Shown piece by piece: positions 10,843-64,000 of a stretch of DNA of 64,000 bases. The number at the start of each line of letters is the position of its first letter. Position 1 is the stretch's first letter. Under the pieces are notes generated by a model that ran no database searches, had not been told where the DNA came from, and was given only the letters and a program-made list of their open reading frames with translations. The translations under genes and the position numbers were made by a program. This DNA is from Minisyncoccia bacterium (GTDB taxonomy: Bacteria; Patescibacteriota; Minisyncoccia; Phycocordibacterales; PALSA-1337): NCBI GenBank assembly GCA_049997795.1, contig JBEKVT010000002.1, forward strand, positions 65,664 through 129,663, written 5' to 3'.

Positions 10843-11238
10843 TCAGAAGATCAAGAACAATATAAGCGAGAGGGTAGCTACAACGCCGACGAGGATGATG
10901 GTGGCGTTCCGCGACTTCCCGTACGCTTCGAGCTCCAGATCTCTGCCCGGCGACGGCATCTTGAGCATGGGGACTATCTCATCGAGCATCAGGCCGAAGC
11001 CGAGACCGACCAGGCCGATCGAGGCTGCGTTCCTCCAGCCGAAGACGAGCATGAATGCAGAGATCATGGCTAGCAGGAATCCCCAGTGGCCGTGATGGAT
11101 ATTGAGGCCGCTCTTCTCGCGAAGCGGCGTCCTGTCGAACGACGATCGCTTAATATTGAATTTGGTTCGCTGGTAGATCGTCGGCATGATCAACAACATC
11201 ACGAAGACCGCGAATTGCAAGTTTGTCAGAGTTTTCAT
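10843..11238 (-). CDS. Hypothetical polytopic membrane protein
   Basis: 131-aa ORF with several hydrophobic helices. It is convergent with the tRNA cluster and has no recognisable family motif. Confidence 0.5.
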   Translation of the reverse strand: MKTLTNLQFAVFVMLLIMPTIYQRTKFNIKRSSFDRTPLREKSGLNIHHGHWGFLLAMISAFMLVFGWRNAASIGLVGLGFGLMLDEIVPMLKMPSPGRDLELEAYGKSRNATIILVGVVATLSLILFLIF

Positions 11239-11347
11239 TGTTCAACATTCGGTTGTGTGTTCTAACAGTGATGTTAGCATAAGAAACCAGTTTGTCATCC
11301 CGTGATGAGCTTGCACCAACTGGGCTGTTTACGCTAGTATATCCGTC

Positions 11348-11539
11348 ATGGAAATGTTCGGCGACGCCATCGGGGCGCTTTTTAAGTTATGGGAAGAGAT
11401 GTTCCTCGTCATTCTTGCCGTCCTGCCGAAAGCCTTCAAACTCGTCCTGTGGGTTCTCCTCGCCGCCGTCATCCTGCCGTGCGTCTTCGTGGCCGGCAAC
11501 ATATACCCGAAGTGGGTGGAGTGGGGCGAAGATTTCTAG
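11348..11539 (+). CDS. Small hypothetical membrane protein (63 aa)
   Basis: Two predicted TM helices. It ends 13 nt before zwf. Presence only; weak support. Confidence 0.3.
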   Translation: MEMFGDAIGALFKLWEEMFLVILAVLPKAFKLVLWVLLAAVILPCVFVAGNIYPKWVEWGEDF

Positions 11540-11551
11540 TACAATGACCGT

Positions 11552-12970
11552 ATGAGCCAGACCCAAGGGAAAGCCGCCGCTTCGGCCGCTCTCCATCCGA
11601 CCATCTTCGTCATCTTCGGCGTGACGGGCGACCTTGCCGGCCGCAAGCTCATCCCGGCTCTCCTAGGCCTTTTCTCCAAAAGGATGCTGCCTCAGCGCTT
11701 CGCCGTCATCGGCTTCTCCCGCCGGCCGTTCTCGAGAGAGGAGTTCCGCGAACTCATCCGGGAGAAGATGGGCGTCAAGCCGGGCGAATTCAGGGAAGAG
11801 GACGTGAAGCATTTCCTGGATCACATGTCGTACGAGCAGGGCTTGTTCGACGAGCCGGCAGCTTATGAACGGCTGTCGGCCCACGTCAAGGCGATCGACG
11901 ACCGCTGGGGCCAATGCTCGAACAAGCTGTTCCATCTGGCCGTGCCGCCGAGCCTCTACGAAGGCATCCTGAGGCGCCTGTCAGAATCGGGCCTGACCGA
12001 GACGTGCGCCGACGAGACCGGCTGGACCAGGATACTCATCGAGAAGCCTTTCGGCCGCGACCTGCCGACGGCCCAGGCCCTGGACAAGCTCCTGGGCAAG
12101 CTCTTCGAAGAGGAGCAGATCTTCCGCATCGACCATTACCTCGCCAAGGAATCATTGCAGAACATCCTGGCCTTCCGCTTCAACAACTCGCTGTTCGAGC
12201 CTATCTGGCGCCGAGATTTCATCGACAAGATCCACATCAAGCTCTTCGACGGAAGCGGCGTGGAAGAGCGGGGCGACACCTACGACGCCATGGGCGCTCT
12301 TAAGGATGTCGGCCAGAACCACATGCTGATGATGCTCTCGGCCATGACCATGGACAAGCCGAAGTCGTTCTCCGGCGCCGACATCCGGGCCGAGCGCGCC
12401 CGCGTCCTAAGTAAGCTCAGGGTCGCCACAGACCGGTCGGCGAAAAAGTGTTCGGTGAGAGGGCAATATTCCGGCTACCAGGCCGAGCCGGGTGTCTCGA
12501 AGCAATCGGAGACGGAGACTTATTTCCGCGTCAAGTCTTACATCAGCTCCTTCCGCTGGAAAAAAGTGCCGCTCTATCTCGAGTCCGGCAAGGGCCTCTC
12601 GGAGACCAAGACCGAGATCGACGTCTATTTCAAGGGCGGCAAGAACGAGAACGAGCAGAACATCCTGACTTTCCGCATCCAGCCGGACGAGGGCATCAAG
12701 ATCAAGTTCTTCGTCAAGACGCCGGGCCATGAATTCAGGGTCGAGCCGAAGACCTTGAAGTTCAAGTACGCCGACGTGCCAGCCGCCAACTGGCAGTCCA
12801 TGCCCAACGACTATGAGCGCCTGATCCACGATGCTTTCATCGGCGACCAAACCTTGTTCGCCTCGACCGAAGAGATCCTGGCCTCATGGAAATTCATCGA
12901 AGCCGTCCTCACGAGCTGGGAGGGCCTGCCGCTAATCAAATACGGAAGGGGAGCGAGGGAAGTGGGGTAA
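11552..12970 (+). CDS. zwf: Glucose-6-phosphate 1-dehydrogenase
   Basis: IFGVTGDLAGRKLIPAL NADP-binding motif and the RIDHYLAKE active-site signature. TACAAT lies 6 nt upstream of the ATG (leaderless). Confidence 0.9.
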   Translation: MSQTQGKAAASAALHPTIFVIFGVTGDLAGRKLIPALLGLFSKRMLPQRFAVIGFSRRPFSREEFRELIREKMGVKPGEFREEDVKHFLDHMSYEQGLFDEPAAYERLSAHVKAIDDRWGQCSNKLFHLAVPPSLYEGILRRLSESGLTETCADETGWTRILIEKPFGRDLPTAQALDKLLGKLFEEEQIFRIDHYLAKESLQNILAFRFNNSLFEPIWRRDFIDKIHIKLFDGSGVEERGDTYDAMGALKDVGQNHMLMMLSAMTMDKPKSFSGADIRAERARVLSKLRVATDRSAKKCSVRGQYSGYQAEPGVSKQSETETYFRVKSYISSFRWKKVPLYLESGKGLSETKTEIDVYFKGGKNENEQNILTFRIQPDEGIKIKFFVKTPGHEFRVEPKTLKFKYADVPAANWQSMPNDYERLIHDAFIGDQTLFASTEEILASWKFIEAVLTSWEGLPLIKYGRGAREVG

Positions 12971-12976
12971 AGGAAA

Positions 12977-13005
12977 AGCCCGCTCCAGTGAAGGTGCGGG
13001 CTTGT
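12977..13005. terminator. Hairpin terminator shared by convergent zwf and the 13028-13363 gene
   Basis: AAGCCCGC tccagtgaaggt GCGGGCTT is an 8-bp perfect stem. Confidence 0.45.
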
Positions 13006-13027
13006 AAATGCTCGTCTCGTCAGTCGC

Positions 13028-13363
13028 TTACCTCATCATCTTCAGCGTTTCTTCAATGAGGAACGCTGCGATAAACGCGGTGAGCATGATCGCAGGCAAG
13101 TACCTGAGGGCCATGCTCGGCGGGCCCTTCCATTCGCCCGGGGGAGCCTTCAGCCCCTTGCTCACACTGACGAGGATGAACGCCACCCCGGCCACGAACG
13201 AGCAGAAGCTCAACAATTCGGTCAGACGGATGTAGGGCAGGGCTTTCGCTACCCCCAGCGGCTCACAGAGGATGTAGCCAAATCCCCAGAAAGAGAGGAT
13301 GACACCACCCACTCCGAGGAAGAGACAAATATCCGAGATGATGTTTTTGGTCTTGTTATTCAT
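13028..13363 (-). CDS. Hypothetical membrane protein (111 aa)
   Basis: Three hydrophobic segments. No family assignment possible by eye. Confidence 0.45.
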   Translation of the reverse strand: MNNKTKNIISDICLFLGVGGVILSFWGFGYILCEPLGVAKALPYIRLTELLSFCSFVAGVAFILVSVSKGLKAPPGEWKGPPSMALRYLPAIMLTAFIAAFLIEETLKMMR

Positions 13364-13548
13364 TGGTTAAGTCTGGTTTGAAAGGCGATAATCCGCTCGG
13401 CGCAATGCCGGCAAGTCGATTATTTCCTTTCTGCCAAACTCAACCTGAATACCTGATCTCAATGTGCTTTTACCCTTATATTATACACCATAATATACCT
13501 ACTTGTCAAGCTCTATTAAACGCCTCAAAATAATGCTAATTTAGCCGT

Positions 13549-14646
13549 ATGTCTCTCTCTATCGGCATAGTTGGCTTGCCGAATGTCGGAAAATCGACGC
13601 TATTCAACGCGCTCACGAAAAAGTCGGTGCCGGCGGAGAATTATCCTTTCTGCACCATAGACCCGTCGGTCGGTGTGGTGGCCGTGCCCGACGAGCGACT
13701 CGGCAAGCTCTCGGCATTCTCGAAGTCCGAAAAGACCATTCCGGCGGCGGTCGAATTCACGGACATCGCCGGCCTGGTCAAGGGCGCCTCGGAAGGCGAG
13801 GGCCTCGGCAACCAGTTCCTGTCGCACATCCGCGAGACCGATGCCATCGCCGAGGTCGTGCGCATCTTCGAGGACGAGAACGTCATCCATGTGCACGGCA
13901 AGATCGACCCCCTGAAAGACATAGAAGTCGTCAACCTGGAATTGATCATGGCTGATATGCAGACCATCGCCAAGAGGAAGAATTCCATCGGCAAAGAGGT
14001 CAAGGCCGGCAAGAAGGAGGCCGTCATTGAGGCCGGGCTATTGGAAAAACTCGAACCGGCCCTTCAGGCCGGCAAATTGGCTTCAATGGTCAAAACGACC
14101 GAGTTCGAAGCGCCTTTCTTGAAACAATTGTGTTTGATAACCGCCAAGCCGATCCTGTACGTCCTGAACAAGAAGGCCGGCGCGAAGAATCTGGACGAAT
14201 TGAAAGACGGAAGATGGAACAGGCTCATGGAGCTTTTAAAATCAACGAATGCCGGCTATGTGATAGTGGACGCCGGCATCGAACAGGAATTGAAAGACCT
14301 GGAAGAATCTGACAAGAAGGAGATGCGGGAAGGGCTTGGCTCGCATGACGACGGAGTCAACGACCTCATCCGCAAGGGTTATGACCTGCTTGGCCTCATC
14401 ACTTACTTCACGACTGGGACCGACGAGACGCGAGCCTGGACGATCAAGGGCGGCTGGACTGCCCCGGAAGCCGGCACCGCCATTCACACCGACTTCAAGG
14501 ATAAATTCGTGCGGGCCGAAGTCATTCAATGGCAAGAGCTCCTCAACGTAGGCTCTTACGCCGCTGCCCGCGAGAAGGGCCTGATCAGGACGGAAGGGAA
14601 AGAATACGTCGTCAAGGACGGCGACGTCATCGAATTCAAGATATAG
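13549..14646 (+). CDS. ychF: Ribosome-binding ATPase YchF (Obg-like GTPase family)
   Basis: P-loop [18 protein letters not shown] and a C-terminal TGS-like region ([12 protein letters not shown]). Confidence 0.9.
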
Positions 14647-19551: not shown

Positions 19552-20562
19552 ATGGAACAGCATTTCATCGATCCGTCGCGCCCGATCGCCGCGCCATCTT
19601 CGGGCTTTTCCCGCACGGCCTGGGCCGTCTGCCTCGTCGTCGCGTTCGCCGCCGTCTCGGGCGGCATCATCGTCCTGGATTCGGCCGCTCCGGCCGATTT
19701 TCCGAGCGGCACGGTCGTATCCATAGAGAACGGCCTCACCCTCGACCAGACCGCCGGCCTCTTAGCGGCCAAGGGGATCATCCGTTCCGCCTTCCTGTAC
19801 AAGGTCTATTCGGTCTTCCTCGAGGGGGGCACCACCGGCGTCAAGACCGGCGATTATCTCTTCGACGCTCCCCAGTCCGCTCTACGCGTGGCATATCGGA
19901 CGGCGCGTGGTCTTGAAGGGTTTCCGACGGTGAAAGTGACCATACCGGAGGGCAGCGATTCGACGGACATGGCTGGGGTGATATCCAAAGCCATCCCCGG
20001 TTTCGACGCCGCCGGCTGGAAGAAGCTGGCCGCGCCCGAAGAAGGATACCTCTTTCCGGATACGTACCTTTGGGCCGTCAATATCAAACCTGACCAGGCC
20101 GTCGCCGACATGAGGGGGGTCTTCGACACCAAAATCCGATCTATCGGCAATGACCTGTCCGCCTTCGGCAAGCCATTGAAAGACGTCGTGGCCATGGCCT
20201 CGATCATCGAAAAAGAAGCGACTTCGAGCGCCGACCGGCGCATCGTCGCCGGCATCCTCTGGAAGCGCCTCTCGATCGGCATGGCTCTACAGGTCGACCC
20301 GCCGTTCTATTATTTCCTGGATAAGCGTCCGGACCAGTTGACGCTCGACGATCTGAAGATCGAATCGCCTTATAATCTCTATCTGCATACGGGGTTGCCG
20401 CCGACGCCGATAGACAGCCCGGGCCTGGATGCCATCATCGATACTATCCATTCTTCTACGACGACCCCATACTGGTTCTATCTCTCCGGTAAAGACGGCT
20501 CTATGCATTACGCCACTGATCTGGACGGACACAACGCCAATAAAGCAAAATATCTGAATTGA
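19552..20562 (+). CDS. mltG: Endolytic murein transglycosylase MltG (YceG-like)
   Basis: N-terminal TM anchor, then the YceG-like signature (IIEKEA...RIVAGILWKRL...LQVDPPFYY). Confidence 0.8.
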   Translation: MEQHFIDPSRPIAAPSSGFSRTAWAVCLVVAFAAVSGGIIVLDSAAPADFPSGTVVSIENGLTLDQTAGLLAAKGIIRSAFLYKVYSVFLEGGTTGVKTGDYLFDAPQSALRVAYRTARGLEGFPTVKVTIPEGSDSTDMAGVISKAIPGFDAAGWKKLAAPEEGYLFPDTYLWAVNIKPDQAVADMRGVFDTKIRSIGNDLSAFGKPLKDVVAMASIIEKEATSSADRRIVAGILWKRLSIGMALQVDPPFYYFLDKRPDQLTLDDLKIESPYNLYLHTGLPPTPIDSPGLDAIIDTIHSSTTTPYWFYLSGKDGSMHYATDLDGHNANKAKYLN

Positions 20563-28546: not shown

Positions 28547-28984
28547 ATGGGAAAGAAACGCATAGTCACAAGCGAGACGGGAGAAGGAGCCGCGGCCGAG
28601 AACAAGCCGAAGGCTTCTCCCGCATCCGGGAAGAAGCACTTGGAATCTGGCGTCTTGTACGTCCAATCAACATACAACAACACCAAGCTGTCCTTGGCAG
28701 ACAGGGAAGGCAACGTCCTCTTGTGGGGATCGAGCGGCGGCGCCGGCTTCAGGGGCGCCAAGAAGGGCACGCCATTCGCCGCCGCCAAGGTCGGCGAAGC
28801 CCTGGCTGCCCGGGCCCAGAGCCTCGGCCTGAAAGAAGTCAGTATCGTAGTGAAGGGCGTCGGCTCCGGCCGCGAGTCCGCCATCCGCGGCTTCGTGAGC
28901 AAAGGCCTTGGCATCGTCTCCATCAAGGACGAGACGCCGGTGCCGTTCAACGGCCCGTCGCCGAAGAAGCCCCGCCGCGTCTAA
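28547..28984 (+). CDS. rpsK: Ribosomal protein S11
   Basis: GVLYVQSTYNNTKLSLADREGNVLLWGSSGGAGFRGAKKGTPFAA matches S11. Confidence 0.9.
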   Translation: MGKKRIVTSETGEGAAAENKPKASPASGKKHLESGVLYVQSTYNNTKLSLADREGNVLLWGSSGGAGFRGAKKGTPFAAAKVGEALAARAQSLGLKEVSIVVKGVGSGRESAIRGFVSKGLGIVSIKDETPVPFNGPSPKKPRRV

Positions 28985-28993
28985 TCAATCATC

Positions 28994-29599
28994 ATGCGAA
29001 TCGGCCCACGCTACAAGAAAGCCCGCTATCTCGGCACTCCCGTCTTCAGGAAGACCCAGACCCAGAAGTACGCCATGCGCGCCCAGCGCAAGCAGAAGAC
29101 GCCGCGGAGGCGCGGAGGCAAGAGCGAGTACGGCCGGCAGCTCCTGGAGAAGCAGAAGGCCCGCTACAGCTACGGCGTCTCCGGCGGCCAGTTCACCAAC
29201 TACGTGAGGAAGGCCCTCCGGGCCGAAGGCGACAACGCCAAGAACCTGATTTGCCTCCTCGAGAGCCGGCTCGACAATGTGGTGGTCAGGGCTGGCTTCG
29301 CTCCGACCCGTGCGGCCGCCCGGCAGATGGTCTCGCACGGCCACATCACCGTCGGCGGCAAGATCGTCACCGTGCCGTCTTACGGGGTCGAGGTCGGCGA
29401 CGTCATAGCCATCCGCGAAGGCAGCCGGAAGAAAGCCTTGTTCGCCAAATTGGACGAGGAGCTCGCGGACGTGAAGACGCCGGCTTGGCTCGTTGTCGAC
29501 CCTTCGAAGAGGGAGATCCGGATCAACGGAGAGCCCGCGGCCGAGGCAAGCGACCTTTTGTTCGACGTGCGTTCGGTCCTGGAATTCTACACCCGCTAG
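28994..29599 (+). CDS. rpsD: Ribosomal protein S4
   Basis: YGRQLLEKQKARYSYGVSGGQF...RLDNVVVRAGFAPTRAAARQMVSHGHITVGGK (S4 domain). Confidence 0.9.
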   Translation: MRIGPRYKKARYLGTPVFRKTQTQKYAMRAQRKQKTPRRRGGKSEYGRQLLEKQKARYSYGVSGGQFTNYVRKALRAEGDNAKNLICLLESRLDNVVVRAGFAPTRAAARQMVSHGHITVGGKIVTVPSYGVEVGDVIAIREGSRKKALFAKLDEELADVKTPAWLVVDPSKREIRINGEPAAEASDLLFDVRSVLEFYTR

Positions 29600-29648
29600 A
29601 CTTCCGGGCTTTTTGAAGTATAATTACTCATTTATCCAATAAATCATC

Positions 29649-32335: not shown

Positions 32336-32358
32336 CCGCGGACTAGATGCCCGCGGCT
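32336..32358 (-). terminator. Intrinsic terminator of the pilin gene (also the hairpin after grpE)
   Basis: CCGCGG actagatgc CCGCGG, preceded on the + strand by AAAATAAAAAA, which gives a T-run after the hairpin on the minus strand. Confidence 0.55.
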
Positions 32359-32376
32359 GTCGAACGTGCCGTTCCT

Positions 32377-32748
32377 TTACGGCTTTTTCCTGAAGACCAC
32401 GGTATAGCCGACGGCTTCCCCGTAAGCGGAGTCAAAGCGGCCTTGCTTCACGACATCCGGAGCGATGGCCGACACTTCCAGCCCGGGATGCGAGTCGAGG
32501 AACGACTTCAGGGTCTGCGGGAAATCCAGGTGGACTTGGGGAAAATAATAGATGATCTCCGAGAATCGGAGCGGCTGATGGCACTGTTTCGCTTCTTCCA
32601 GCGCCTCATCTGGCGTCGGCCTCTGCTTCTGCTGTCGTTGCACCTCATTATAGATTTTCTGATAAGCCGGGACAGCTATAGCGACAAGGAGGCCGATGAT
32701 GCAGACGATTATCATGCCCTCGATGAGCGTAAAAGCCCTGTTCTTCAT
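32377..32748 (-). CDS. Type IV pilin / pseudopilin with a class III (prepilin) signal peptide
   Basis: MKNRAFTLIEGMIIVCIIGLLVAIAVPAY: a G/F cleavage-methylation site, E at +5 and a hydrophobic alpha1 helix. An own promoter TTGACA-N17-TACATT lies upstream on the minus strand (around 32800-32830). Confidence 0.8.
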   Translation of the reverse strand: MKNRAFTLIEGMIIVCIIGLLVAIAVPAYQKIYNEVQRQQKQRPTPDEALEEAKQCHQPLRFSEIIYYFPQVHLDFPQTLKSFLDSHPGLEVSAIAPDVVKQGRFDSAYGEAVGYTVVFRKKP

Positions 32749-32852
32749 AAGTGGGTTCCTTTCCGATATGTGGTTTTAAAACAACTAGTGGATATTGGAG
32801 GCGTTTAATGTAACATTTATGGGTAAATATGTCAATACCAATCGGATTAAAA

Positions 32853-33093: not shown

Positions 33094-33193
33094 GACTATC
33101 TCCAGGTTAAAGGTTTAGAGATCAACTAAGCTGTCTAAATCTTAACATATAATAATTCAATTTGTCAAGCAACCCTTGACCTGTGCATAAATA

Positions 33194-33202
33194 TGCTATA
33201 AT
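33194..33202 (+). promoter_or_regulatory. Extended -10 promoter TGCTATAAT heading the dnaK upstream region
   Basis: TGCTATAAT with TTGACC 15-16 nt upstream. The ATG at 33212 lies 9 nt downstream. Confidence 0.5.
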
Positions 33203-33211
33203 GGCCCCGTA

Positions 33212-33517
33212 ATGCTCACGCCGTATATACAGCCAAGATTCGTAGAAAAGGTCATTTCTGACCGCTCTGGCCGCCGATTCCGGATGATATTCCTGGTGGC
33301 GCTCGTGGACGGGGAAGTGAAAGGACGCCTGATCTCCGTAGAGCTGATCGTCGAATCTTTCCGCTCCGCTGAATGCGTCGCTTGTTTGCCGGGCGCCAGC
33401 ATCAAAAAGGTCCCCGCAACCGAATATATTCCTACTTTCGCTCCGGCCGTTTCTCCATATTTTTCTCTGGAATTTCTCATAAACAGCCAACCCACTCGGG
33501 CGCCCGCTTATAGATAA
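33212..33517 (+). CDS. Candidate leaderless ORF (101 aa) in the dnaK leader region; function unknown
   Basis: It starts 9 nt after the TGCTATAAT -10, the same arrangement used by many confirmed genes in this window. No family motif; weak. Confidence 0.25.
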   Translation: MLTPYIQPRFVEKVISDRSGRRFRMIFLVALVDGEVKGRLISVELIVESFRSAECVACLPGASIKKVPATEYIPTFAPAVSPYFSLEFLINSQPTRAPAYR

Positions 33518-39248: not shown

Positions 39249-39821
39249 ATGGATTTGCCGCAAAAGATCGAAGCCGTGCTGTTCTGGAAAGCCGAACCGG
39301 TGGCCGTGAAGAAGCTCGCTTCGCTCCTCGATACGGACGTGAAGTCGGTGAGAGACAGTCTAGCCGAATTGGAGAAATCCTTGCAGGGCAGGGGATTGAC
39401 ATTGGTCCAGACCGACGACGATGTCATGCTCGGCACGGCCAAGGAGCTTTCGCCTTTGATAGAGAAGCTTACGAAAGACGAGCTCAGCAGAGACCTGGGA
39501 CGGGCAGGCCTGGAAACGCTCTCCATTGTCCTTTACCAGGGCCCTATCTCGCGCTCAAACATCGATTACATCCGCGGCGTCAATTCGCAGTTCATCCTGC
39601 GGTCGCTCATGATCCGCGGCTTGATCGAGAGGATAGACAATCCGGATGACGCCAGGAGCTATCTTTACAAGCCGACTTTGGACCTCCTGTCCCATCTCGG
39701 CATCTCCAAGATAGCCGACCTGCCGGAATACGGAGAGGTGAAGAAGGACATAGAATCGTTCAAACAGAGCGCCGCCCCCGCTTCGGCCGAGGCCAGAGAC
39801 AGTGCTACAATAGGGGAGTGA
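39249..39821 (+). CDS. scpB: Segregation and condensation protein B
   Basis: IEAVLFWKAEPVAVKKLASLL... winged-helix tandem. TGCTATAAT lies 7 nt upstream of the ATG at 39249; the ORF track begins at 39180 inside scpA. Confidence 0.8.
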   Translation: MDLPQKIEAVLFWKAEPVAVKKLASLLDTDVKSVRDSLAELEKSLQGRGLTLVQTDDDVMLGTAKELSPLIEKLTKDELSRDLGRAGLETLSIVLYQGPISRSNIDYIRGVNSQFILRSLMIRGLIERIDNPDDARSYLYKPTLDLLSHLGISKIADLPEYGEVKKDIESFKQSAAPASAEARDSATIGE

Positions 39822-40921
39822 TGTCTTCCGGCGCTCGTATCGATCGTTTCTTCTTGTATTCGACCGCTCTCCTCACGACGGCCGGTTTTTTCATCTTCCT
39901 GTCCGCCTCGCTCGGTCTCCTCGCCCAGAACGGCGCCAGCTTCGGGACCGTGGCCGCGAAACAAGCTGTGAGCCTTCTCATGGGCGCCGGGGCATTCTAT
40001 CTGTTCTCCAGGATAGATCATGCCTATCTGAGGAAGCTCGCCCTGCCGATCCTCTTCGGCGCCGTCTGCCTCAACCTGCTCATCTTCGTCCCCTGGCTCG
40101 CCATCCACTACAACGGCGCTTCCAGGTGGATTAACATCGGCCAGGTATCCGTCCAGCCATCGGAGTTCCTTAAGCTCGGCTTCATCATATACCTTTCGGC
40201 CTGGATATATTTCGCCAAGGACCGCGTCAAGCGCATGAAGTACGGCCTCGTCCCGTACGTCGCCATCATGGCCATCTTAGGCATCCTGCTCCTCGTCCAG
40301 TCCGACACCGATACCCTGGTCATCATCGGCGCAACGGGCATCATCATGCTCTGGGTCGCCGGCATGCCCATCCGGCACGTCTTCCTGGCCTTCCTTCTCA
40401 TGGCGGCGGTCGTCGCCGGCGTGGTCTTCATGCGCCCGTACGCCTGGGAGCGCGTCAAGGTTTTCCTTGATCCGGGAGCGAGCTCCCAGAGCTCGAGCTA
40501 TCAGATCAACCAGGCCAAGATCGCCATCGGCTCCGGCGGCCTCCTCGGCCGGGGCTTCGGCAAGAGCATCCAGAAATTCGGCTATCTGCCGCAGCCGACC
40601 GATGACTCGATATTCGCCGTGGCGGCCGAAGAGTTCGGCTTCGCCGGCATCATGGTCCTTCTCGCCTTATACTGCTCGTTCGCCGCGAGCGCCCTCCGAG
40701 TCGGCACCCGGGCGCCGGACGCTTTCGGCGGCTTCCTGTCGATAGGCATCGCCGTCCTCGTCATCATCGAATCGTTCCTGAACATGGCAGCCATGCTCGG
40801 CCTGGTGCCTCTCTCCGGCGTGCCGCTCCTCTTCGTCTCGCACGGCGGCACGGCTCTCATCATCACTCTCATGGCGGCCGGCATGGTGGCGAACATCTCC
40901 AGGCATCCCCGCGGCTCGTGA
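39818..40921 (+). CDS. ftsW: SEDS-family peptidoglycan glycosyltransferase (FtsW/RodA)
   Basis: Ten predicted TM helices. Conserved QPSEFLK and PLLFVSHGGTAL motifs. It lies next to murG. Confidence 0.85.
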   Translation: MMSSGARIDRFFLYSTALLTTAGFFIFLSASLGLLAQNGASFGTVAAKQAVSLLMGAGAFYLFSRIDHAYLRKLALPILFGAVCLNLLIFVPWLAIHYNGASRWINIGQVSVQPSEFLKLGFIIYLSAWIYFAKDRVKRMKYGLVPYVAIMAILGILLLVQSDTDTLVIIGATGIIMLWVAGMPIRHVFLAFLLMAAVVAGVVFMRPYAWERVKVFLDPGASSQSSSYQINQAKIAIGSGGLLGRGFGKSIQKFGYLPQPTDDSIFAVAAEEFGFAGIMVLLALYCSFAASALRVGTRAPDAFGGFLSIGIAVLVIIESFLNMAAMLGLVPLSGVPLLFVSHGGTALIITLMAAGMVANISRHPRGS

Positions 40922-45814: not shown

Positions 45815-46498
45815 TTATCCCCTGTCCTGTTTGTTTGGTTCAGCAGCTAATTCAAGCAGCACCGTCTTCTTGAAAAATTTCTCCGTCATCACACTGATGT
45901 TTTGTGGTAGTTTCTTATCCTTCCTTCTTATAAGCTCATCAATCTCCTTTTGATCTATCTTCTCATTATTTACAAGAACAAAGTAGATCTTTGAGTGGAT
46001 ACTAGAATATCGCTTCATTTTAATACTAACCACTCCCCCGAGAGACTTGATATCCTGAGCATAGAATAGGTCTATTACGATACCCTCGTTATCTGATTTA
46101 TAAATAAAGAAATCGCAACAAATATAGCCGGGCCGAAGAATTTTGTGTTCGTGTACCCTTACCTCCGGGATATTTGATATAAGATACCTATAAAAGCTTT
46201 CCTCATAATTTACAGCCTGTGAATGCGTTCTGCGCGCCACTGCAGCTCGATGTTCTCCCATGGTTAAATTAAGACCTGTGTTTAATGACAGTGCTTTTCT
46301 GACATTTGAAATGCCCTCGAAATTTCTTTGAATCAGCCTGGCTGACGGAAGATATTCAAAAGTATCAAAATCTTGGATTCTGGGATAATTACCATTCAAA
46401 GATTTGAAATACTCCATACCCTGCCTGATTTCCTCAAGAGTCCACTTTTGTTGGTGTCCGATTTTCTTTTTCTTATCTGGAATTATCATTGAATACAC
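45815..46498 (-). CDS. Homing-endonuclease-like protein: an N-terminal homing-endonuclease-associated repeat-type DNA-binding module plus a C-terminal PD-(D/E)xK-like nuclease core. It is encoded in an AT-rich islet.
   Basis: WTLEEIRQGMEYFKSLNGNYPRIQDFDTFEYLPSARLIQRNFEGISNVRKAL resembles the W.EEI...F....GR.P...DF...LPS...I.R.FGSW motif. Candidate nuclease residues are GYICCDFFIY...GIVIDLFYAQDIK. Codon usage and base composition are visibly AT-rich compared with the flanks. Confidence 0.5.
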   Translation of the reverse strand: MYSMIIPDKKKKIGHQQKWTLEEIRQGMEYFKSLNGNYPRIQDFDTFEYLPSARLIQRNFEGISNVRKALSLNTGLNLTMGEHRAAVARRTHSQAVNYEESFYRYLISNIPEVRVHEHKILRPGYICCDFFIYKSDNEGIVIDLFYAQDIKSLGGVVSIKMKRYSSIHSKIYFVLVNNEKIDQKEIDELIRRKDKKLPQNISVMTEKFFKKTVLLELAAEPNKQDRG

Positions 46499-46623
46499 TT
46501 TAACACATAATAATATAGACGTGATCGTTTCCCCTTCCTATAGGAAAAAACCTTATAGCCTTGAGTCCAATATCACAAAAAGCCCTACCCTTCCGGACAG
46601 GACCTTCCGCGGTTTATGATAAT

Positions 46624-47121
46624 TCACTTCCTGGCGAGATCTCCCGAACTTGACCAGCATTTTTCCGACGAGATCCACGGTTCTATCCCGTATTTCTCGT
46701 AAAGATGCTTGGCGAAAGCCACGTTCCCTTTGGTCTCGTATATGTCGTACCCCAGCTTGGCCGCCTCGGCGGCGTGATACTTCTCGTTGATCTGCATCAC
46801 GCCCACGTCGGCCGGGTTGGCCTCGCCGCGGATGGCCTTGCCGCCGCTTCCGTACTGGCGGAAGGCCGACTCGCAACGGGCGATGTCGACCAAGATCGGC
46901 TCGTCCGCGTATTGCTCGCGGACGTACGCTTCTATGTCTTTGGAGACGTCCAGGGGCTGGGCTTCGGCGGCCGTCGCCTGCTCCGCCTGCGGAGGAGCGA
47001 TGTCGGGAGCCGCCGCATTCGCCTGCCCCGCGCCGTAGAGCGAGGACATGAGGAATGCCGCACCTGTAGCTATTTCTATCATTTTCCAATTAAAAAACGA
47101 GCTTGCGAGCATGACGCTCAT
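46624..47121 (-). CDS. Secreted transglycosylase-like (Rpf/lysozyme-like) protein
   Basis: The signal peptide likely starts at the internal MIEIATGAAFLMSSLYGAGQANA. The motif DIARCESAFRQYG...NPADVGVMQINEKYH resembles the Rpf/transglycosylase-like CES...GhhQ core. Confidence 0.45.
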   Translation of the reverse strand: MSVMLASSFFNWKMIEIATGAAFLMSSLYGAGQANAAAPDIAPPQAEQATAAEAQPLDVSKDIEAYVREQYADEPILVDIARCESAFRQYGSGGKAIRGEANPADVGVMQINEKYHAAEAAKLGYDIYETKGNVAFAKHLYEKYGIEPWISSEKCWSSSGDLARK

Positions 47122-59018: not shown

Positions 59019-60623
59019 CTATACCTTCCCGAACGGTTCGATCTCGACGATGAAGGTGGCGCCCTTCCCTTCCCCGGCCGACTCGGCGCGGATCGTGCCG
59101 TGGTGGGCCTCCACCAGCTGTTTGGCCACGAAAAGGCCGAGGCCGGTGCCTTTGATGTTGACCTTCGAGGCGTTCTCGGCCCGGGAGAATTTCTGGAAGA
59201 GGTGCGGCAGGACTTTCGGGTCGATGCCGACGCCGGTGTCCTTGACGGCGAAGACGAAGAGGTGCCGCGGCCGGTCGAAGGCGAGAGTCACGGCGACCGA
59301 GCCGGACGGCGTGTATTTCATGGAATTGTCGATCAGGTTGGCGATGACCTGTTTGAATTTATCGCGGTCGGCGGTGATGCGGTAATCGATGTTGCTGTCC
59401 TCGGCGGTGAAGGAGAACTTGAGGCCGGCCTTCTCGATGTTCGGCTGGAGCTCGGCGATGACGTCTTCGATCAAGGTCTTCAGGTCAATGGTCTCGAAGT
59501 TGTACTTCATGGTGCCGAGTTCGATCCTGGAGACGTTCAGATAGTCATCGACGATGCTGACCAGGGTGTTGGTCGAATCGAAGATGTGCCGGATGCCGTC
59601 AAGGGCTTGCCGGCCGAGCTCCCCCATGTCGCCCTCAAGAAGGAGCGAGGCGTAGCCTTTCATGGCCGAGAGAGGGGCCCGCAGCTGATGCGTGGCGAAG
59701 GATATGAACTCCGACTTCTGCCGGTCCAGCTCCGTCAGCCGCTCGTTCGCCTTCTCCAGGTCATCCGCCAGCTTTTGGATGCGCTCGCGTTGAAGAACTT
59801 CTTTAATAACACTTCGAATTAAGAAAACACCCGTAATTATGACTAAAACAAAAAGAATCCCGTTTATAATAATATCTTCGAATGAAATCGAAAGCAGTGT
59901 CCTGACAAAGATAAAAATGGAAAGTGCAAAGACCAACAATTCGGTTGCGATAACCTTTATGTTCAAAAAGTGTAGTTTCAATATTGCATAAGCCGTGAAG
60001 CCGACAAATAAAATCAAGCTTGGCGCATCAAGGAGGGTAAAGTCAAAAACATTAAAATATACAGGCAATATAACGCTGAATGATAGAGCTGCAAGGCTAT
60101 AAGATGAAACCCCAAGAAGGATGAACCTTAATTGTAATTTTGATATTCCTGTAGCCTTCTTTTGGGCTTGATATATAAGATAAATAAACGAACAGATGTA
60201 AAGCAGAAAATACAGCGCGTATATTGTGAAGAATGGCCCTAAATGACCTTGATAACCTAGCACGGTCAGACGATCAATTCCACTGACAACATATCCGTCT
60301 AAATAACAAATAGCGAAGAGGAAAATGCTGGGTATAAAAATGCCTATTTTTTGCCACAGTGGAATTCTTTTTAAATCAATGTTACATATTTCAAGAATCC
60401 AGATTAGGCCGGTTAGTGGTACAAGTGTCGTAAACGCATAACTGCTTCGTAGAATAATCAGGGTTGGGTAGAATCTGAACAAATAATCAAATATGATGGA
60501 AATGACTGTGCTAAGACTAAATACAGCAAAACCATAATTTAATCTTTCATTCGGTTTTCGTAACCAGACTATCAACCCAAGAAAAAGGTTGAGTATCCCG
60601 GATAATAAGATAATGACAGACAT
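59019..60623 (-). CDS. Sensor histidine kinase with an N-terminal polytopic (7TM-receptor-type, HisKA_7TM-like) sensor domain. The sensor part is AT-rich and the kinase core GC-rich.
   Basis: About 8 TM helices over the first ~270 aa, then a coiled-coil linker (QRERIQKLADDLEKANERL), an H-box FATHQLRAPLSAMKGY, an N-box LIDNSMKYT, G1 VKDTGVGID and G2 GTGLGLFVAKQLV. The nucleotide composition switches near 59800. Confidence 0.85.
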   Translation of the reverse strand: MSVIILLSGILNLFLGLIVWLRKPNERLNYGFAVFSLSTVISIIFDYLFRFYPTLIILRSSYAFTTLVPLTGLIWILEICNIDLKRIPLWQKIGIFIPSIFLFAICYLDGYVVSGIDRLTVLGYQGHLGPFFTIYALYFLLYICSFIYLIYQAQKKATGISKLQLRFILLGVSSYSLAALSFSVILPVYFNVFDFTLLDAPSLILFVGFTAYAILKLHFLNIKVIATELLVFALSIFIFVRTLLSISFEDIIINGILFVLVIITGVFLIRSVIKEVLQRERIQKLADDLEKANERLTELDRQKSEFISFATHQLRAPLSAMKGYASLLLEGDMGELGRQALDGIRHIFDSTNTLVSIVDDYLNVSRIELGTMKYNFETIDLKTLIEDVIAELQPNIEKAGLKFSFTAEDSNIDYRITADRDKFKQVIANLIDNSMKYTPSGSVAVTLAFDRPRHLFVFAVKDTGVGIDPKVLPHLFQKFSRAENASKVNIKGTGLGLFVAKQLVEAHHGTIRAESAGEGKGATFIVEIEPFGKV

Positions 60624-60626
60624 GAT

Positions 60627-61697
60627 TTATACAGATATAAATTTATTAACAAAATTCCTTCCTAGTATATTCCCCATAATATCCCCAGACGTCTCTCCGT
60701 TATTGCATTTCTTCGCGGCCAGATATACACATCCTATGTTGTAAGCAATTCTATTGTACAGGGCATCCGATCCAAAGATAAGTTTTGAGCTTGGTATTAT
60801 ATTAAGAGTTCTTGAAATGACTGACGTGGACACGCCTGAGGTATCGAAAAACAGATTGCTGTATTTATCACTCAGTTTCTTTATCAAACGATAATCAATG
60901 TTAACCATACCGTAATGACCTATGTGGGCAATAATGACCTTTATGTCATAAGCGCTCAGAAGTTCACTGGCTCCATCTTTATCACAGAAATTTTCTAGTA
61001 AACCATTTGTCCTACTTCGTTCGATATAACCGTATTTCCTGTTTATCTTAAGGGTATAATTTGAAATGCCGCCGTGGAACAAAACATAAAGTTTGTATTT
61101 GGCGGCAGTCTCGTATATCTTGCGGAGTTTTTTTGCAATCTCATCGCCGTTTTTATATGGTTCTGGTTTGAAATTCTGAAGATTGGGGTGAAATTTAAGT
61201 CCAACAATATGGTAATTATCTACATACGACTTTATGGTGGATTCGATTTCTGAAAGATTGATGTTGTGGATGTCGACGGAACCAAGAAGCATAAATCTAG
61301 TATCCTGAGAATATTTTTTACCGACGTTTTCTGTCGGCGCCCATGGGTCGAGAGACAAAAGAATGCTTTTATCGGCTAGTGATGCTTCCATTTCTTCAAG
61401 GATTCGATCAGCATTAGTTTTTTTGTAAGTATGCTCAATCATAGAGAACACACTCCTAGGAAAAAGTTTAAAGTACAATCGTGATCCTATCTTTTCAAGT
61501 TTACTGTAATTAAATTTTTCTAAAATTCCTGGGCTCAAATAATCTTCGTGGCAGCATTCATCGACAATTTCTTCATAATGGACAACGCCCATAACGTCAA
61601 TCGGGTGAATGTGAGTGTCAATGATCCGAAAACTTAAATCATTTTTTAGTTTTCGTACATCTTTTAGGACCTCTATAATTTGTCTTTTGTACATCAA
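60627..61697 (-). CDS. Metal-dependent amidohydrolase-2-family (TIM-barrel) hydrolase
   Basis: IIDTHIHP (HxH metal ligands), FHGG, AHIGH and FGSDA. It lies 3 nt from the sensor-kinase gene and overlaps the upstream gene by 4 nt. Confidence 0.65.
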   Translation of the reverse strand: MMYKRQIIEVLKDVRKLKNDLSFRIIDTHIHPIDVMGVVHYEEIVDECCHEDYLSPGILEKFNYSKLEKIGSRLYFKLFPRSVFSMIEHTYKKTNADRILEEMEASLADKSILLSLDPWAPTENVGKKYSQDTRFMLLGSVDIHNINLSEIESTIKSYVDNYHIVGLKFHPNLQNFKPEPYKNGDEIAKKLRKIYETAAKYKLYVLFHGGISNYTLKINRKYGYIERSRTNGLLENFCDKDGASELLSAYDIKVIIAHIGHYGMVNIDYRLIKKLSDKYSNLFFDTSGVSTSVISRTLNIIPSSKLIFGSDALYNRIAYNIGCVYLAAKKCNNGETSGDIMGNILGRNFVNKFISV

Positions 61698-62908
61698 AAT
61701 CCTATTTCGCTTTTAATTTCTTTTAGATTTTCAATCAGGACGTTAATCTGTTCCTTTGTGTGTGCGGTTGACACGGTCGTGCGCAGGCGAGCCTTGCCTT
61801 TCGGTACGGCCGGCCAACGAGCTGCAGGAATGAAGATGCCGCGCTCCAGGAGCTTGACGCTGGCATCCATAGCCTTTTTCTCATTTCCTATAAAAATGGG
61901 TATTATCTGCGTTCTAGAATTGAGGAAATTGATTCCGATATTCGCTAATTGGTCTTTCATATATAGCGCATTGGCAAGTACTTTCTCTCTCCTCCAGGTC
62001 TCCTCGGTTGCGATCTCGATCGACTTAATCAGACCACAGACCACCGGGGGCGCGATCGGCGCCGTGAAGATGAATGAGTCAGAAGTTATTTTGAGATAAT
62101 CGACCAAATCTTTTGAACCAACCACGAAACCACCGACCCCGCCAAAACATTTGGTGAATGTCCCCATAATCACATCGACTTGCCCTTCAACGTTGTAGTA
62201 GTCTTCGACTCCTCGGCCGTGCGGGCCAAGGATGCCAGTGCCGTGAGCATCATCGAGATAAACGATCGCTTTGTATTGTCTCGCTTGTTCAAGTATCTGG
62301 GGTAGCGGAGCGATGTCGCCATCCATACTAAAAACTCCGTCCGTCACAATCATCTTTCTTTGGGATACGGGATAATTCTTCAGTTTTTCCAGTAAGTCAT
62401 TAATGTCCAAATGCTTGTAGATCTCTTTCTTCGCACCGCTCAATCGTATACCGGCGATGGCACTCGCGTGATTGTACTCATCGCTGAAGATAATTGTGTC
62501 TTTATCTTTCGCGATTTTTTCGCTGAAGAGCGACGCCAGAGAAAATTTCGGGACATTGACTAATGCCGGGATGGTGCCGGAGTTTGCCATGTATCCAGAG
62601 ACGAACGACACTGCCGCTTCCCTGTGTTTGAACGCAGCGATTTTTTCTTCCAACTGATTATGAATCTCAAGATTGCCGGTCAGGAGACGGGCGCTGCCAT
62701 TACCGATACCCCATTTCCTTGCTCCTTGAACAGCCGCCTCGATAACACGTGGATCTGTCATCAAATCCAAATAATTATTAGTCGCGAACATTAAGACCTT
62801 TTTTCCGTTGACTACAACTTCTGGAGCATGCGGCGAAGATACTACGGGCGGGTACGGGTAAAAACCATGTTTCTTAATGAAATTTACCGCTTGAGAAAGA
62901 CTTTTCAT
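61694..62908 (-). CDS. PLP-dependent alpha-oxoamine synthase family enzyme (BioF / Kbl / serine palmitoyltransferase / CqsA-type)
   Basis: Fold-type I PLP enzyme. DDAHGTGILGPHGRG and GTFTKCFGGVGGFVVG (PLP lysine in TFTK). The length of about 404 aa is typical for this family. Confidence 0.8.
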   Translation of the reverse strand: MKSLSQAVNFIKKHGFYPYPPVVSSPHAPEVVVNGKKVLMFATNNYLDLMTDPRVIEAAVQGARKWGIGNGSARLLTGNLEIHNQLEEKIAAFKHREAAVSFVSGYMANSGTIPALVNVPKFSLASLFSEKIAKDKDTIIFSDEYNHASAIAGIRLSGAKKEIYKHLDINDLLEKLKNYPVSQRKMIVTDGVFSMDGDIAPLPQILEQARQYKAIVYLDDAHGTGILGPHGRGVEDYYNVEGQVDVIMGTFTKCFGGVGGFVVGSKDLVDYLKITSDSFIFTAPIAPPVVCGLIKSIEIATEETWRREKVLANALYMKDQLANIGINFLNSRTQIIPIFIGNEKKAMDASVKLLERGIFIPAARWPAVPKGKARLRTTVSTAHTKEQINVLIENLKEIKSEIGF

Positions 62909-63022
62909 GACTTCATTTTAACATTATCTGGTAATTTTTGCGTGTTGGATATGTGGGTAGAAATCTTATAGATGACGCGCGTAACAGATTTCTGAATTAC
63001 CTTGGTACCTTATCTTGATATA

Positions 63023-64000
63023 ATGAACGGCGTGGTTATATCAGCATATGTTGTAATCATCTGGACTGCTGCTGTACTTATTGGCAGTCTAGCTCTAGTT
63101 ATATTTCTAGGTAACAACAAACCTTCTTCGAGGGCTTTCGCCTTTACTATATCCATAGTCACCTTGTGGACAATGAGTGTTGGGCTTTTTACAGCTTCAA
63201 GGGATCCGAATCTTGCTGAATTTTGTATAAAGATGAATTTTTTCCTTGGGAGCGCTATAGCCTCATCATTTTTATATTTTTTCTTCACATTTCCTTACGA
63301 CAAAAGGCCTAACCATAAACTTGCCTTGTCTCTTGTAATGCTCCAACTTATTTTCTTATATTTATATTTTTTTACGAATATCATTGTATATGGACCAGTC
63401 CCATTAACAAATCCTTCTTCTGCTATTTGGTGGGGATGGGGATTGGGTCCAGGATATTTTGTATATAACCTATTCTTTTTCGGTTTTTTCTTGACCGGAA
63501 TCGTACTCTTATATCATAGATACCGTTTAACCAAAGATTATTCTCAAAAGAATAATCTAAAATACATGTTGTCAACAGTGATTATAGGCCTAATCCCGCC
63601 AACGCTTTTTAATCTAATTTTACCTCCATTAGGATATTTTGGTCTTAATTGGGTTGGACCAGCCAGTGGTATGTTCTGGGTACCGATTATGGCCTATTCC
63701 ATCATCCGTTATCATCAAATGAATGTACGGGTGGTGGTTACAGAGGTGCTGGCCATCGGTATGGCGTTCATTTTCTTCATGGACATCTTTATCACGATGT
63801 CGTTCGGTATTTGGGGGCGTATCGGTACCTTCGGGGCTTTCCTTGTTTTGAGCGCATATTTGATTCGCGGTGTTCTCCGGGAAGCTAAGCAGAGAGAACA
63901 GCTCGACGATCTAAACCGAAATCTCGAGCAGAAAGTCGCCGATCAGACGGTGGAGATCAGGAAGTCGTACGAAGCAGAGAAACATGCCCGCGCGGAATTG
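63023..64000 (+). CDS. Second sensor histidine kinase-like protein, 5' part only (runs off the window). It has a polytopic 7TM-type sensor domain paralogous to that of 59019-60623.
   Basis: An open frame from ATG 63023 with no stop before the window end. The start codon is uncertain because the -10-like TATAAT (63019-63024) overlaps this ATG. LVIFLGNNKPSSRAFAFTISIV resembles LIVWLRKPNERLNYGFAVFSLS of the first kinase. After the last TM helix the sequence becomes GC-rich and enters a coiled-coil linker (REAKQREQLDDLNRNLEQKVADQ). Confidence 0.6.
   Translation, partial: MNGVVISAYVVIIWTAAVLIGSLALVIFLGNNKPSSRAFAFTISIVTLWTMSVGLFTASRDPNLAEFCIKMNFFLGSAIASSFLYFFFTFPYDKRPNHKLALSLVMLQLIFLYLYFFTNIIVYGPVPLTNPSSAIWWGWGLGPGYFVYNLFFFGFFLTGIVLLYHRYRLTKDYSQKNNLKYMLSTVIIGLIPPTLFNLILPPLGYFGLNWVGPASGMFWVPIMAYSIIRYHQMNVRVVVTEVLAIGMAFIFFMDIFITMSFGIWGRIGTFGAFLVLSAYLIRGVLREAKQREQLDDLNRNLEQKVADQTVEIRKSYEAEKHARAEL

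Follow-up and report, generated by a model that had tools for sequence, protein, structure and literature searches.

The hypervariable region of the staphylococcal agr locus spans agrB, agrD, and agrC, including the N-terminal transmembrane (TM) half of the kinase, and the kinase core is conserved (PMC10482373). In comQXPA of Bacillus subtilis, most of the polymorphism is in the signal, the enzyme that modifies it, and the membrane domain at the N terminus of ComP, and the cytoplasmic kinase domain is conserved (PMC4008528). CqsA and LqsA are pyridoxal phosphate (PLP)-dependent enzymes that are paired with membrane kinases (PMC3376566); in CqsA/CqsS of Vibrio and LqsA/LqsS of Legionella, an enzyme of the alpha-oxoamine synthase (AONS) family lies beside a multi-TM kinase that has no large periplasmic domain and senses the hydrophobic product (PMC3376566, PMC3285556). 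The locus described in this study is found at the end of a 64,000-nucleotide stretch (the window) of a contig from a Minisyncoccia bacterium (GenBank assembly GCA_049997795.1, contig JBEKVT010000002.1); Minisyncoccia is a class within the phylum Minisyncoccota. It consists of two divergently oriented sensor kinase genes, designated K1 and K2, with an AONS gene and an amidohydrolase gene between them, and its central part is markedly AT-rich. O-antigen and capsule loci, the central domain of fliC, and the target-recognition domains of hsdS are further cases in which AT-rich variable DNA is swapped via conserved flanks, which results in mosaic boundaries.

As in agr, the variable block at this locus comprises a biosynthetic gene and the sensor half of a kinase and ends inside the kinase gene at the TM/linker junction; as in comQXP, a tailoring enzyme and the membrane sensor half vary, while the kinase core is conserved. 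The distribution typical of both systems is observed in K1, i.e., the core is 69 to 77% identical and the sensor 31 to 35% identical to those of syntenic relatives, the tailoring gene belongs to a differing family, and the boundary falls at codons 276 to 279. The comQXP polymorphism is said, in work attributed to Tortosa et al. in 2001, to end abruptly inside comP. However, agr alleles coexist within a species, whereas the variation found here is between species only, and agr employs a peptide signal and the adjacent regulator AgrA, whereas no small-peptide gene was identified here and no regulator is adjacent. The enzymes of the present locus point instead to a nonpeptide product, there are two divergent kinases, and the variable part is strongly AT-shifted. 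In comQXP, a HisKA_3 kinase is combined with the adjacent ComA and an isoprenylated peptide, whereas HisKA kinases are combined with AONS and an amidohydrolase or a methyltransferase here. The linkage of an AONS-family synthase to a multi-TM kinase, as in CqsA/CqsS, is present in the window and recurs in 20 loci of the kinase family, but the synthase lies outside the CqsA clade and scores 174 bits on the autoinducer-synthase model, the cutoff of which is 428. The hybrid kinase CqsS contains a receiver domain, which both K1 and K2 lack, and the sensors at this locus are of the seven-TM (7TM) HisKA_7TM type in K2 and of a HisKA_7TM-like type in K1, rather than 6TM. Like the O-antigen type of cassette, the locus holds AT-rich variable DNA that is framed by conserved flanks and occupies a fixed position in the chromosome, but its anchor or anchors lie inside a signaling gene at a domain junction, so that each swap rewires a sensor onto a kinase. 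Since intraspecific alleles, an adjacent regulator, a peptide, a CqsA-clade synthase, and a hybrid kinase were not found, the locus is likened here to agr, comQXP, and CqsA and is not classified as a member of any of them. No description of it was found in the literature on HisKA_7TM and on quorum sensing in Patescibacteria.

We consider, with a probability of about 0.68, that the AT-rich tract is the variable center of a conserved two-kinase locus of Minisyncoccia/Paceibacteria, in which sensor and enzyme modules have been recurrently exchanged onto conserved kinase cores. The observations behind this reading are the composition breaks in the kinase genes and their recurrence, the incongruence of sensor and core, the joint inheritance of sensor and enzyme, and the reassortment of sensor and core types. 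The locus is the most extreme instance, among the 62 surveyed, of a lineage-wide exchangeable enzyme-plus-sensor module.

Sensor/core junction of K1 and its ancestry

The GC content at third codon positions (GC3) of K1 is 0.35 over codons 1 to 278 and 0.88 over codons 279 to 534. The switch occurs between codon 278 (CAA, 59790-59792) and codon 279 (CGC, 59787-59789), with eleven A/T-ending codons in a row through Gln278 and G/C-ending codons following, with hardly a break, once Arg279 is reached. The log-likelihood ratio (LLR) of this change point is 85.5, compared with 8.1 for the best of 2,000 shuffles. An earlier note on this DNA had placed a composition flip in K1 at the junction of the last TM helix and the linker, which agrees with this result, although the island start that it gave (59806) is approximately 16 nucleotides off the actual switch. 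In the core, HisKA covers residues 302 to 369 (1e-11) and HATPase_c covers residues 419 to 528 (8.9e-26). Residues 1 to 278 have no Pfam match of their own; they align with the sensors of the homologues P0002 and P0004 and of the orthologues in the loci L174 and L175, all of which carry PF16927 (locus and protein numbers are those of our collection). Only 11 homologues of the K1 sensor were found among 5.8 billion proteins, the best being 60% and 50% identical and some carrying PF16927.

Sensor and core have different relatives. The sensor is 59 to 62% identical to those of L094 to L097 and L101, which were found in a metagenome scan, and 56% identical to that of L019, but only 31 to 35% identical to the sensors of syntenic relatives. 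The core is 73 to 80% identical to Paceibacterota kinases that carry unrelated sensors. Nearest neighbors were determined among 83 full-length kinases with 1,000 column bootstraps: the neighbor of the sensor is L097 (59%) or L019 (56%) in 1,000 of 1,000 replicates, whereas the neighbors of the core are L123, L016, and L015 (73 to 74%) and never L097 or L019. Over 82 kinases, identity to the K1 sensor does not correlate with identity to the K1 core (Spearman 0.12, p = 0.27). The separate placement of the two halves, which the earlier note had suggested as a check, thus gives disjoint nearest neighbors.

The same switch is seen in the DNA. In blastn comparisons, homology of the window to L097 spans AONS, the amidohydrolase, and the sensor and stops 7 nucleotides before the junction, whereas homology to L123 starts 12 nucleotides ahead of the junction and continues through the core at 74% nucleotide identity. 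Codons 265 to 276 of K1 are identical to L097 at 31 of 36 nucleotides (86%), and the DNA from codon 279 onward matches the pattern of L174, L123, and L012. Because these two homology patterns meet there, the crossover is placed within codons 276 to 279 (59787-59798), in LIRSVIKEV-QRE, a motif whose amino acid sequence is conserved throughout the family. The other end of the replaced unit lies at the AONS stop and the start of the next gene, approximately 61694 to 61700. The incongruence and the homology switch support the claim of the earlier note that the K1 sensor half, together with the amidohydrolase, differs in history from the core to which it is joined in frame.

The composition flip also affects annotation. 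K1 is cut short at the flip by gene callers (349 amino acids in Joint Genome Institute [JGI] data), K2 is called as 343 amino acids, and many relatives are annotated as "soluble" or "HAMP" kinases of 259 to 370 amino acids, although the open reading frame (ORF) extends farther upstream to include a 7TM sensor that is AT-rich; truncated calls include L001 5922-6953, P0133 to P0136, P0018, P0020, P0021, and P0053. The kinase ORF of L012 extends to the contig start. Because the flip makes gene callers truncate the kinases, public annotations systematically miss the sensor domains.

Relatives, the second kinase, and composition across the family

Syntenic loci were recovered via the K1 core and AONS. 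Their common layout is a tRNA synthetase, a hypothetical protein, in some cases TatD, an acyltransferase, a K2-type kinase on the minus strand, AONS or other enzymes with a K1-type kinase on the plus strand, YqeY, and RmuC. In L123, an 856-kb contig, the flanking proteins are well conserved relative to the window (DnaB 84%, L21 80%, YqeY 69%, RmuC 68%, RecR 67%), and identity falls from the K1 core (73%) over the K2 core (56%), AONS (42%), and the K1 sensor (34%) to the K2 sensor (26%). The amidohydrolase is absent in L123, which has an AT-rich tract of its own at 5751-8750 (GC 0.31 to 0.43, compared with 0.55) between the same two cores. In L174, L175, and L177, the K1 core is 69 to 77% identical to that of the window while the K1 sensor is only 31 to 35% identical, and a hypothetical protein and an ICMT/PEMT methyltransferase replace the amidohydrolase between AONS and K1. 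In L174, the background GC of which is 0.56, AONS is near the host composition (0.50 to 0.57), with an AT-rich block on either side. Sensor and enzyme blocks that are AT-rich and end at the same junction are found in each relative, which has its own. The architecture of a 7TM sensor on a kinase core and the presence of two divergent kinases are ancestral to the locus (L123, L174, L175, L177, L013, L014, and L017), and domain shuffling caught in the sequence, as the earlier note put it, is not supported as a new event.

The cassette has relatives elsewhere. In L094 to L097 and L101, an amidohydrolase (51 to 52% identical) lies directly upstream of the sensor, and the cores are only 28 to 51% identical. 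L097 has the order of the window, with AONS (62%) upstream of the amidohydrolase (52%), the sensor (59%), and a core of 49%; in L094, the sensor is 62% and the core 28% identical. The contigs of these cassette relatives have low to moderate GC (0.35 to 0.40 in L008 to L011; 0.42 in L097). In a kinase of L019 (2490-4202), a K1-type sensor (56%) is joined to a K2-type core (45%, compared with 32% to the K1 core), which indicates that sensor and core types reassort. This kinase adjoins an acyltransferase and a tRNA synthetase, as K2 does, and its flanks also hold a divergent methyltransferase and an ORF of 279 amino acids. L177 holds extra kinase genes, so that the locus can expand: on the K2 side (4333-7699), a 571-amino-acid 7TM kinase and a kinase split into ORFs of 372 and 85 amino acids, and on the K1 side (10686-13699), kinases of 527 and 380 amino acids.

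K2 runs from 63023 past the window end for approximately 680 more nucleotides, and its full length of 559 amino acids was read from L002. Its N terminus matches PF16927 (3.5e-13; 50.4 bits against a cutoff of 28.6), and the full-length protein matches kinase models over residues 325 to 558; HisKA and HATPase_c are given in gene calls. The best model of its GC3 has three segments, i.e., 0.31 for residues 1 to 216, 0.63 for residues 217 to 335, and 0.81 for residues 336 to 559 (change-point LLR 53, shuffle maximum 9.7). The rise begins at approximately 63670 to 63730, 55 to 70 codons upstream of the REAKQREQ motif (63887), and is gradual: GC3 at the linker is still only 0.45 to 0.6 and reaches 0.81 to 0.9 beyond the window end. 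The flip within a few codons of the linker that had been claimed for K2 is thus not present. In L174, the closest relative, the K2 change point lies at the equivalent residue 222 (LLR 50.8), as in the window, and in K2 orthologues, change points lie at K2 residues 205 to 245 or 288 to 297. The K2 sensor is 26 to 50% identical to the K2-type sensors of relatives, and the cores are 49 to 62% identical. A 92-amino-acid ORF antisense to the K2 N terminus (63010-63288, minus strand), annotated as a gene on a single JGI contig (L007 381-659), is most likely spurious, a shadow ORF of the AT-rich DNA.

The coordinates of the features are collected in Table 1. GC is 0.52 to 0.62 nearly everywhere in the window, drops to 0.32 to 0.40 at 59800-61700, is 0.44 to 0.50 at 61700-62800, and is low again (0.32 to 0.43) from 62800 to approximately 63700. 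GC3 is 0.31 to 0.36 in the amidohydrolase and both sensors and 0.52 in AONS. The tract is therefore two AT-rich blocks around an AONS of intermediate GC, and not one uniform island. The earlier note had described AT-rich DNA throughout from approximately 59806 to approximately 63890; the drop in GC, from window averages of 0.55 to 0.61 down to 0.32 to 0.50, is real from 59800 to 63700, but AONS is intermediate (GC 0.45 to 0.50). AONS is also 79 to 84% identical to those of L174, L175, and L177 over its whole length, and no mosaicism was found inside it, these three loci being the closest along the entire gene. AONS is for these reasons regarded as a resident gene, and the unit replaced in this genome is accordingly the amidohydrolase together with the K1 sensor. 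A single horizontally acquired island, as had been proposed, is not supported with a conserved resident gene in its middle.

Table 1 Features of the two-kinase locus in the window
Feature	Coordinates	Strand	Basis and remarks
K1 kinase, 534 amino acids, HisKA + HATPase_c	59019-60623	-	Pfam
K1 core: coiled-coil linker, HisKA, HATPase_c (residues 279-534)	59019-59789	-	GC3 0.88, host-like
K1 breakpoint, codons 276-279 (...KEVLQ/RER...)	59787-59798	-	composition and ancestry both change
K1 multi-TM sensor half (residues 1-278)	59790-60623	-	GC3 0.35; HisKA_7TM-like family
Amidohydro_2 enzyme, 355/356 amino acids, variable "tailoring" gene	60627-61697	-	PF04909, 1.4e-10; GC3 0.36
Alpha-oxoamine synthase (PLP-dependent, BioF/KBL/SPT-like)	61694-62908	-	PF00155 (Aminotran_1_2), 6.9e-56; GC3 0.52
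Intergenic region (AT-rich, divergent) separating K2 from the AONS operon; presumed to hold promoters	62909-63022	.	ORF map
K2 sensor, AT-rich part (residues 1-216), HisKA_7TM	63023-63670	+	GC3 0.31; PF16927
K2 intermediate zone: last two TM helices, linker, DHp start (residues 217-326)	63671-64000	+	GC3 ~0.63
AT-rich block 1: K1 sensor + amidohydrolase	59790-61697		
AT-rich block 2: intergenic region + K2 sensor	62909 to ~63670		

The composition gap is not confined to this genome. Sensor GC3 is lower than core GC3 in 55 of the 62 family loci (Wilcoxon 2e-9), and no gap is seen in controls from outside the Patescibacteria. Significant GC3 change points fall at K1-equivalent residues 263 to 291 in more than 20 loci, and a second cluster lies at residues 202 to 225, before the last two TM helices. 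In L014, L017, L022, L042, and L047, AT-rich tracts of 3 to 4.5 kb extend upstream from the junction. The K1 core, with a GC3 of 0.88, exceeds the window (approximately 0.74), and kinase cores adjoining variable blocks (K1 and those of L107, L175, and L177) exceed the genomic background in GC, e.g., 0.44 to 0.48 compared with 0.38 in L107. These GC-richer cores could be a footprint of frequent recombination, i.e., GC-biased gene conversion, in the anchors.

Elsewhere in the window, a second, smaller low-GC patch (45815-47089, GC approximately 0.47) contains two minus-strand hypothetical ORFs of 227 and 178 amino acids (GC3 0.40 and 0.47) with no Pfam match. Lower-GC3 ORFs with no Pfam match are also found at 28723-29616 (GC3 0.48), 32347-32808, and 33122-33490. 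Five tRNA genes are clustered on both strands at 10181-10783 (Ala-CGC, Pro-CGG, Ala-GGC, Pro-GGG, and Val-CAC); all of them decode G/C-rich codons, in keeping with the GC3 bias of the host.

Enzymes of the locus and their coupling to the sensors

AONS, the amidohydrolase, and K1 form one tightly coupled operon, in which the amidohydrolase gene is separated from K1 by a gap of 3 nucleotides and overlaps AONS at the stop/start codons. A scan of the intergenic region for consensus promoters and terminators gave 7 sites, compared with 11.3 expected from shuffles, and was uninformative. The amidohydrolase has no match in the Protein Data Bank (PDB) or NCBIfam and shares 51 to 52% identity with its positional counterpart in L094 to L097. 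The nearest PDB entries for AONS are 8s1y and 7poa (BioF/KBL) and 3a2b (serine palmitoyltransferase [SPT]), and CqsA reaches only 1e-16. AONS falls below all NCBIfam equivalog cutoffs, namely, those of bioF (406.8 against 426.45), glycine C-acetyltransferase (381.9 against 460), CFB-type SPT (343.6 against 640), and the AHK autoinducer synthase (174.1 against 428), and is thus assigned to the fold family only (PF00155).

In 81 of 115 family loci, a tightly coupled ORF lies upstream of the kinase. These ORFs belong to AONS (20 loci), Amidohydro_2 (14), nitroreductase-like (12), PlsC-type acyltransferase (9), and ThiF (9) families, and other families among them are methyltransferases, an epimerase/reductase, the N-acyl-amino-acid synthase FeeM, an aromatic-amino-acid lyase, and S-adenosylmethionine (AdoMet) decarboxylase. 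Sensor similarity is 0.37 between loci of the same enzyme type and 0.29 between loci of different types (permutation p < 0.0005, with core identity controlled), whereas core similarity shows no association with enzyme type (p = 0.85). A recurrent alternative cassette upstream of kinases of the same 7TM family (L042 728-6016; also L143, L162, and L045) contains an aromatic-amino-acid lyase, an uncharacterized protein of approximately 500 amino acids, a ThiF/E1-like protein, and a nitroreductase-like protein; the pairing of E1-like and nitroreductase-fold proteins resembles azole-forming peptide-modification enzymes.

AONS and the tailoring enzyme may make a lipid-like, amphiphilic small molecule that is detected in the membrane by the co-inherited, loop-poor 7TM sensor, a proposal that is the simplest one on function and that we rate somewhat short of even odds. 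It is more doubtful, though conceivable, that the Patescibacteria (candidate phyla radiation [CPR]) possess widespread, undescribed small-molecule signaling modules, each consisting of variable biosynthesis genes (AONS with a tailoring enzyme, FeeM with a methyltransferase, lyase/ThiF/nitroreductase, and others) that are inherited together with the ligand-binding 7TM half of a kinase and exchanged among lineages, in frame at a fixed junction, onto conserved cores, that would provide a nonpeptide "pherotype" for kin or host recognition in these ultrasmall episymbionts. If such a module exists, its AT-rich composition would be a trace left by the fast turnover of cassettes.

Weighing of explanations and implications

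Under the reading of recurrent exchange, the layout from the acyltransferase to YqeY and RmuC would be ancestral, the kinase cores and, in most relatives, AONS would be the conserved parts with host composition, and the TM sensor halves and the gene or genes between AONS and K1 would be the exchangeable AT-rich modules. The amidohydrolase and the K1 sensor would have been installed by recombination between the boundary of AONS with the next gene and codons 276 to 279, in frame within K1; the order AONS-amidohydrolase-sensor expected of a donor is found in lower-GC Patescibacteria. The K2 sensor would represent a second block with an older or mosaic boundary approximately 60 codons upstream of the linker. 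The crossovers probably use the conserved flanks, i.e., AONS and the kinase linker with the dimerization and histidine phosphotransfer (DHp) domain, as homology arms, and the AT-richness would reflect a lower-GC cassette pool whose turnover is faster than drift to host composition, to which a local AT-keeping regime may add. A joint swap of tailoring enzyme and sensor would alter the specificity of signal and receptor, while the kinase core and an unlinked response regulator would be kept, in the manner of agr, comQXP, and CqsA/CqsS.

Several observations weigh against this reading or limit it. Regarding composition, GC3 of the sensor and the cassette follows host GC with slopes of 0.94 and 0.97, about half the slope of the core (1.78), and the gap is present even in the low-GC host L013 (0.23 to 0.30, compared with 0.37). 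Because the gap is family-wide, scales with host GC, and exists in a host of GC 0.37, transfer from a low-GC donor is unlikely to be the sole cause of the AT-richness; a local compositional regime, or rapid turnover with partial drift to host composition, probably also acts. No donor above approximately 60% amino acid identity was found, the best sensor and amidohydrolase relatives being 52 to 62% identical, so that the exchange is not datable and its recency is unproven; the sharp, unameliorated boundary needs either an unsampled recent donor or a force that keeps the DNA AT-rich. The K2 sensor is roughly equidistant (42 to 50%) from most relatives and may be vertically inherited, yet it is AT-rich. 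As for function, physical linkage alone could account for sensor and enzyme being inherited together, AONS resembles BioF/KBL/SPT more closely than CqsA, and the enzymes of the locus could simply modify envelope lipids. Neither a response regulator nor a receiver domain was found in the 64-kb window and the 6.6 kb that follow it (L001/L002). The 17 contigs of this species and the 7 cluster members all carry one allele, with single Leu-to-Pro changes as the sole differences; alternative alleles of the same species were not found in this limited sample, and intraspecific "pherotypes" are not demonstrated, the variation being between species only.

The rival accounts differ mainly in how the sharp K1 boundary and the AT-rich blocks are explained. 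If a single foreign AT-rich cassette of approximately 4 kb had been gained once and fused in frame with two resident cores, the very sharp K1 boundary, the incongruence of sensor and core, and the cassette relatives in uniformly low-GC contigs (L008 to L011, 0.35 to 0.40) would all be expected. However, the AONS in the middle is resident (79 to 84% identical in syntenic relatives) and of intermediate GC, the K1 and K2 boundaries differ in sharpness and position, and the relatives share the architecture, with the same junctions bounding AT-rich blocks that are particular to each of them. A mobile genomic island was likewise rejected. The tract consists, by Pfam, of two enzymes and two sensor halves only, with no integrase; no tRNA lies near it (the nearest is 49 kb away), no phage or plasmid DNA matches it, and no direct or inverted repeats were found at the K1 and K2 junctions beyond weak homology in the kinase G-box. 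One-off gain is largely refuted by the syntenic loci and is improbable. Site-specific recombination or inversion between the divergent kinases has no direct support, with no repeats at the junctions beyond that weak homology, though L019 mixes types. A second account holds that fast-evolving sensors and accessory genes became AT-rich in situ without exchange, through AT-biased mutation or relaxed codon selection, while the cores were kept or driven GC-rich, e.g., by GC-biased gene conversion wherever sequence similarity suffices for recombination, so that the boundary is the onset of conservation. This agrees with the gap in 55 of 62 loci, which extends to low-GC hosts and scales with host GC, with the intermediate GC of the more conserved AONS, with a K1 core whose GC3 lies above that of the window, with the roughly vertical yet AT-rich K2 sensor, and with the lack of a close known donor. 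The nearest relatives of the K1 sensor and the amidohydrolase, however, lie outside the syntenic clade on unrelated cores, the tailoring gene of the closest relatives is of another enzyme family, L019 has a K1-type sensor on a K2-type core, the stretch of 36 nucleotides that is 86% identical to L097 extends up to the junction, and a step from 0.35 to 0.88 at a single codon is hard to obtain by gradual processes. Such nonorthologous replacement refutes in situ divergence as the sole cause, for which we see only a small chance, although it may still explain why the AT-richness persists.

Two further explanations concern the function of the locus and the reality of the break. The AONS/SPT-like, PlsC-like, ICMT/PEMT, and amidohydrolase enzymes may act on the cell's own envelope lipids, with the 7TM kinases monitoring the membrane or regulating the pathway and no signal passing between cells; the relationship of AONS to BioF/KBL and bacterial SPTs, the frequency of PF01553 acyltransferases as neighbors, and the single allele per species are in keeping with this. 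The chemistry of the cassettes is, however, very diverse (FeeM with a methyltransferase; a lyase with ThiF and a nitroreductase; AdoMet decarboxylase with an NNMT-like methyltransferase), for which diversified small-molecule products are a better fit than housekeeping lipid synthesis, and the sensors covary with enzyme type; envelope-lipid remodeling is rated below even odds but is a serious rival. An artifact, i.e., a chimeric metagenome assembly or a codon effect of hydrophobic TM segments, has a negligible probability. The source is metagenomic, and five metagenome-assembled contigs of different species (L012, L018, L026, L033, and L039) break off at or no more than a few dozen bases from the sensor/core junction, which suggests that assemblies tend to break there through strain variation or an effect of coverage or composition. 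The exact K1 protein, however, is present on 17 contigs (NCBI protein MGC9605702.1, "Minisyncoccia bacterium"; contigs up to 657 kb), and seven loci from ENA/MEGAHIT, Logan, and JGI assemblies of different samples are 99.99 to 100% identical to the window across the region. An assembly chimera was rejected on account of this identity among independent samples and assemblers. Hydrophobic codon composition was also rejected: predicted TM codons outside the island have a GC3 of 0.775, compared with 0.736 for other codons, and the soluble amidohydrolase (GC3 0.36) equals the sensors in AT-richness. The earlier note had excluded this effect from the GC-rich ftsW and mltG, correctly, as FtsW (39818-40921; GC3 of TM codons 0.90) and MltG/YceG (19552-20562) are GC-rich.

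The K1 crossover is an unusually clean natural case of modular sensor rewiring in a two-component system, resolved to four codons in the linker between the TM helices and the DHp domain. Because it is reused across dozens of species, the junction is an evolutionarily validated splice point for the engineering of chimeric 7TM kinases. The occurrence of the flip throughout the family, in hosts of all GC contents, raises the question of why variable DNA stays AT-rich beside cores with a GC3 of 0.9. The enzyme cassettes seem to move along with the receptor halves, and the locus provides a testable hypothesis on cell-cell or membrane-lipid signaling in CPR bacteria, whose signaling is essentially unknown.

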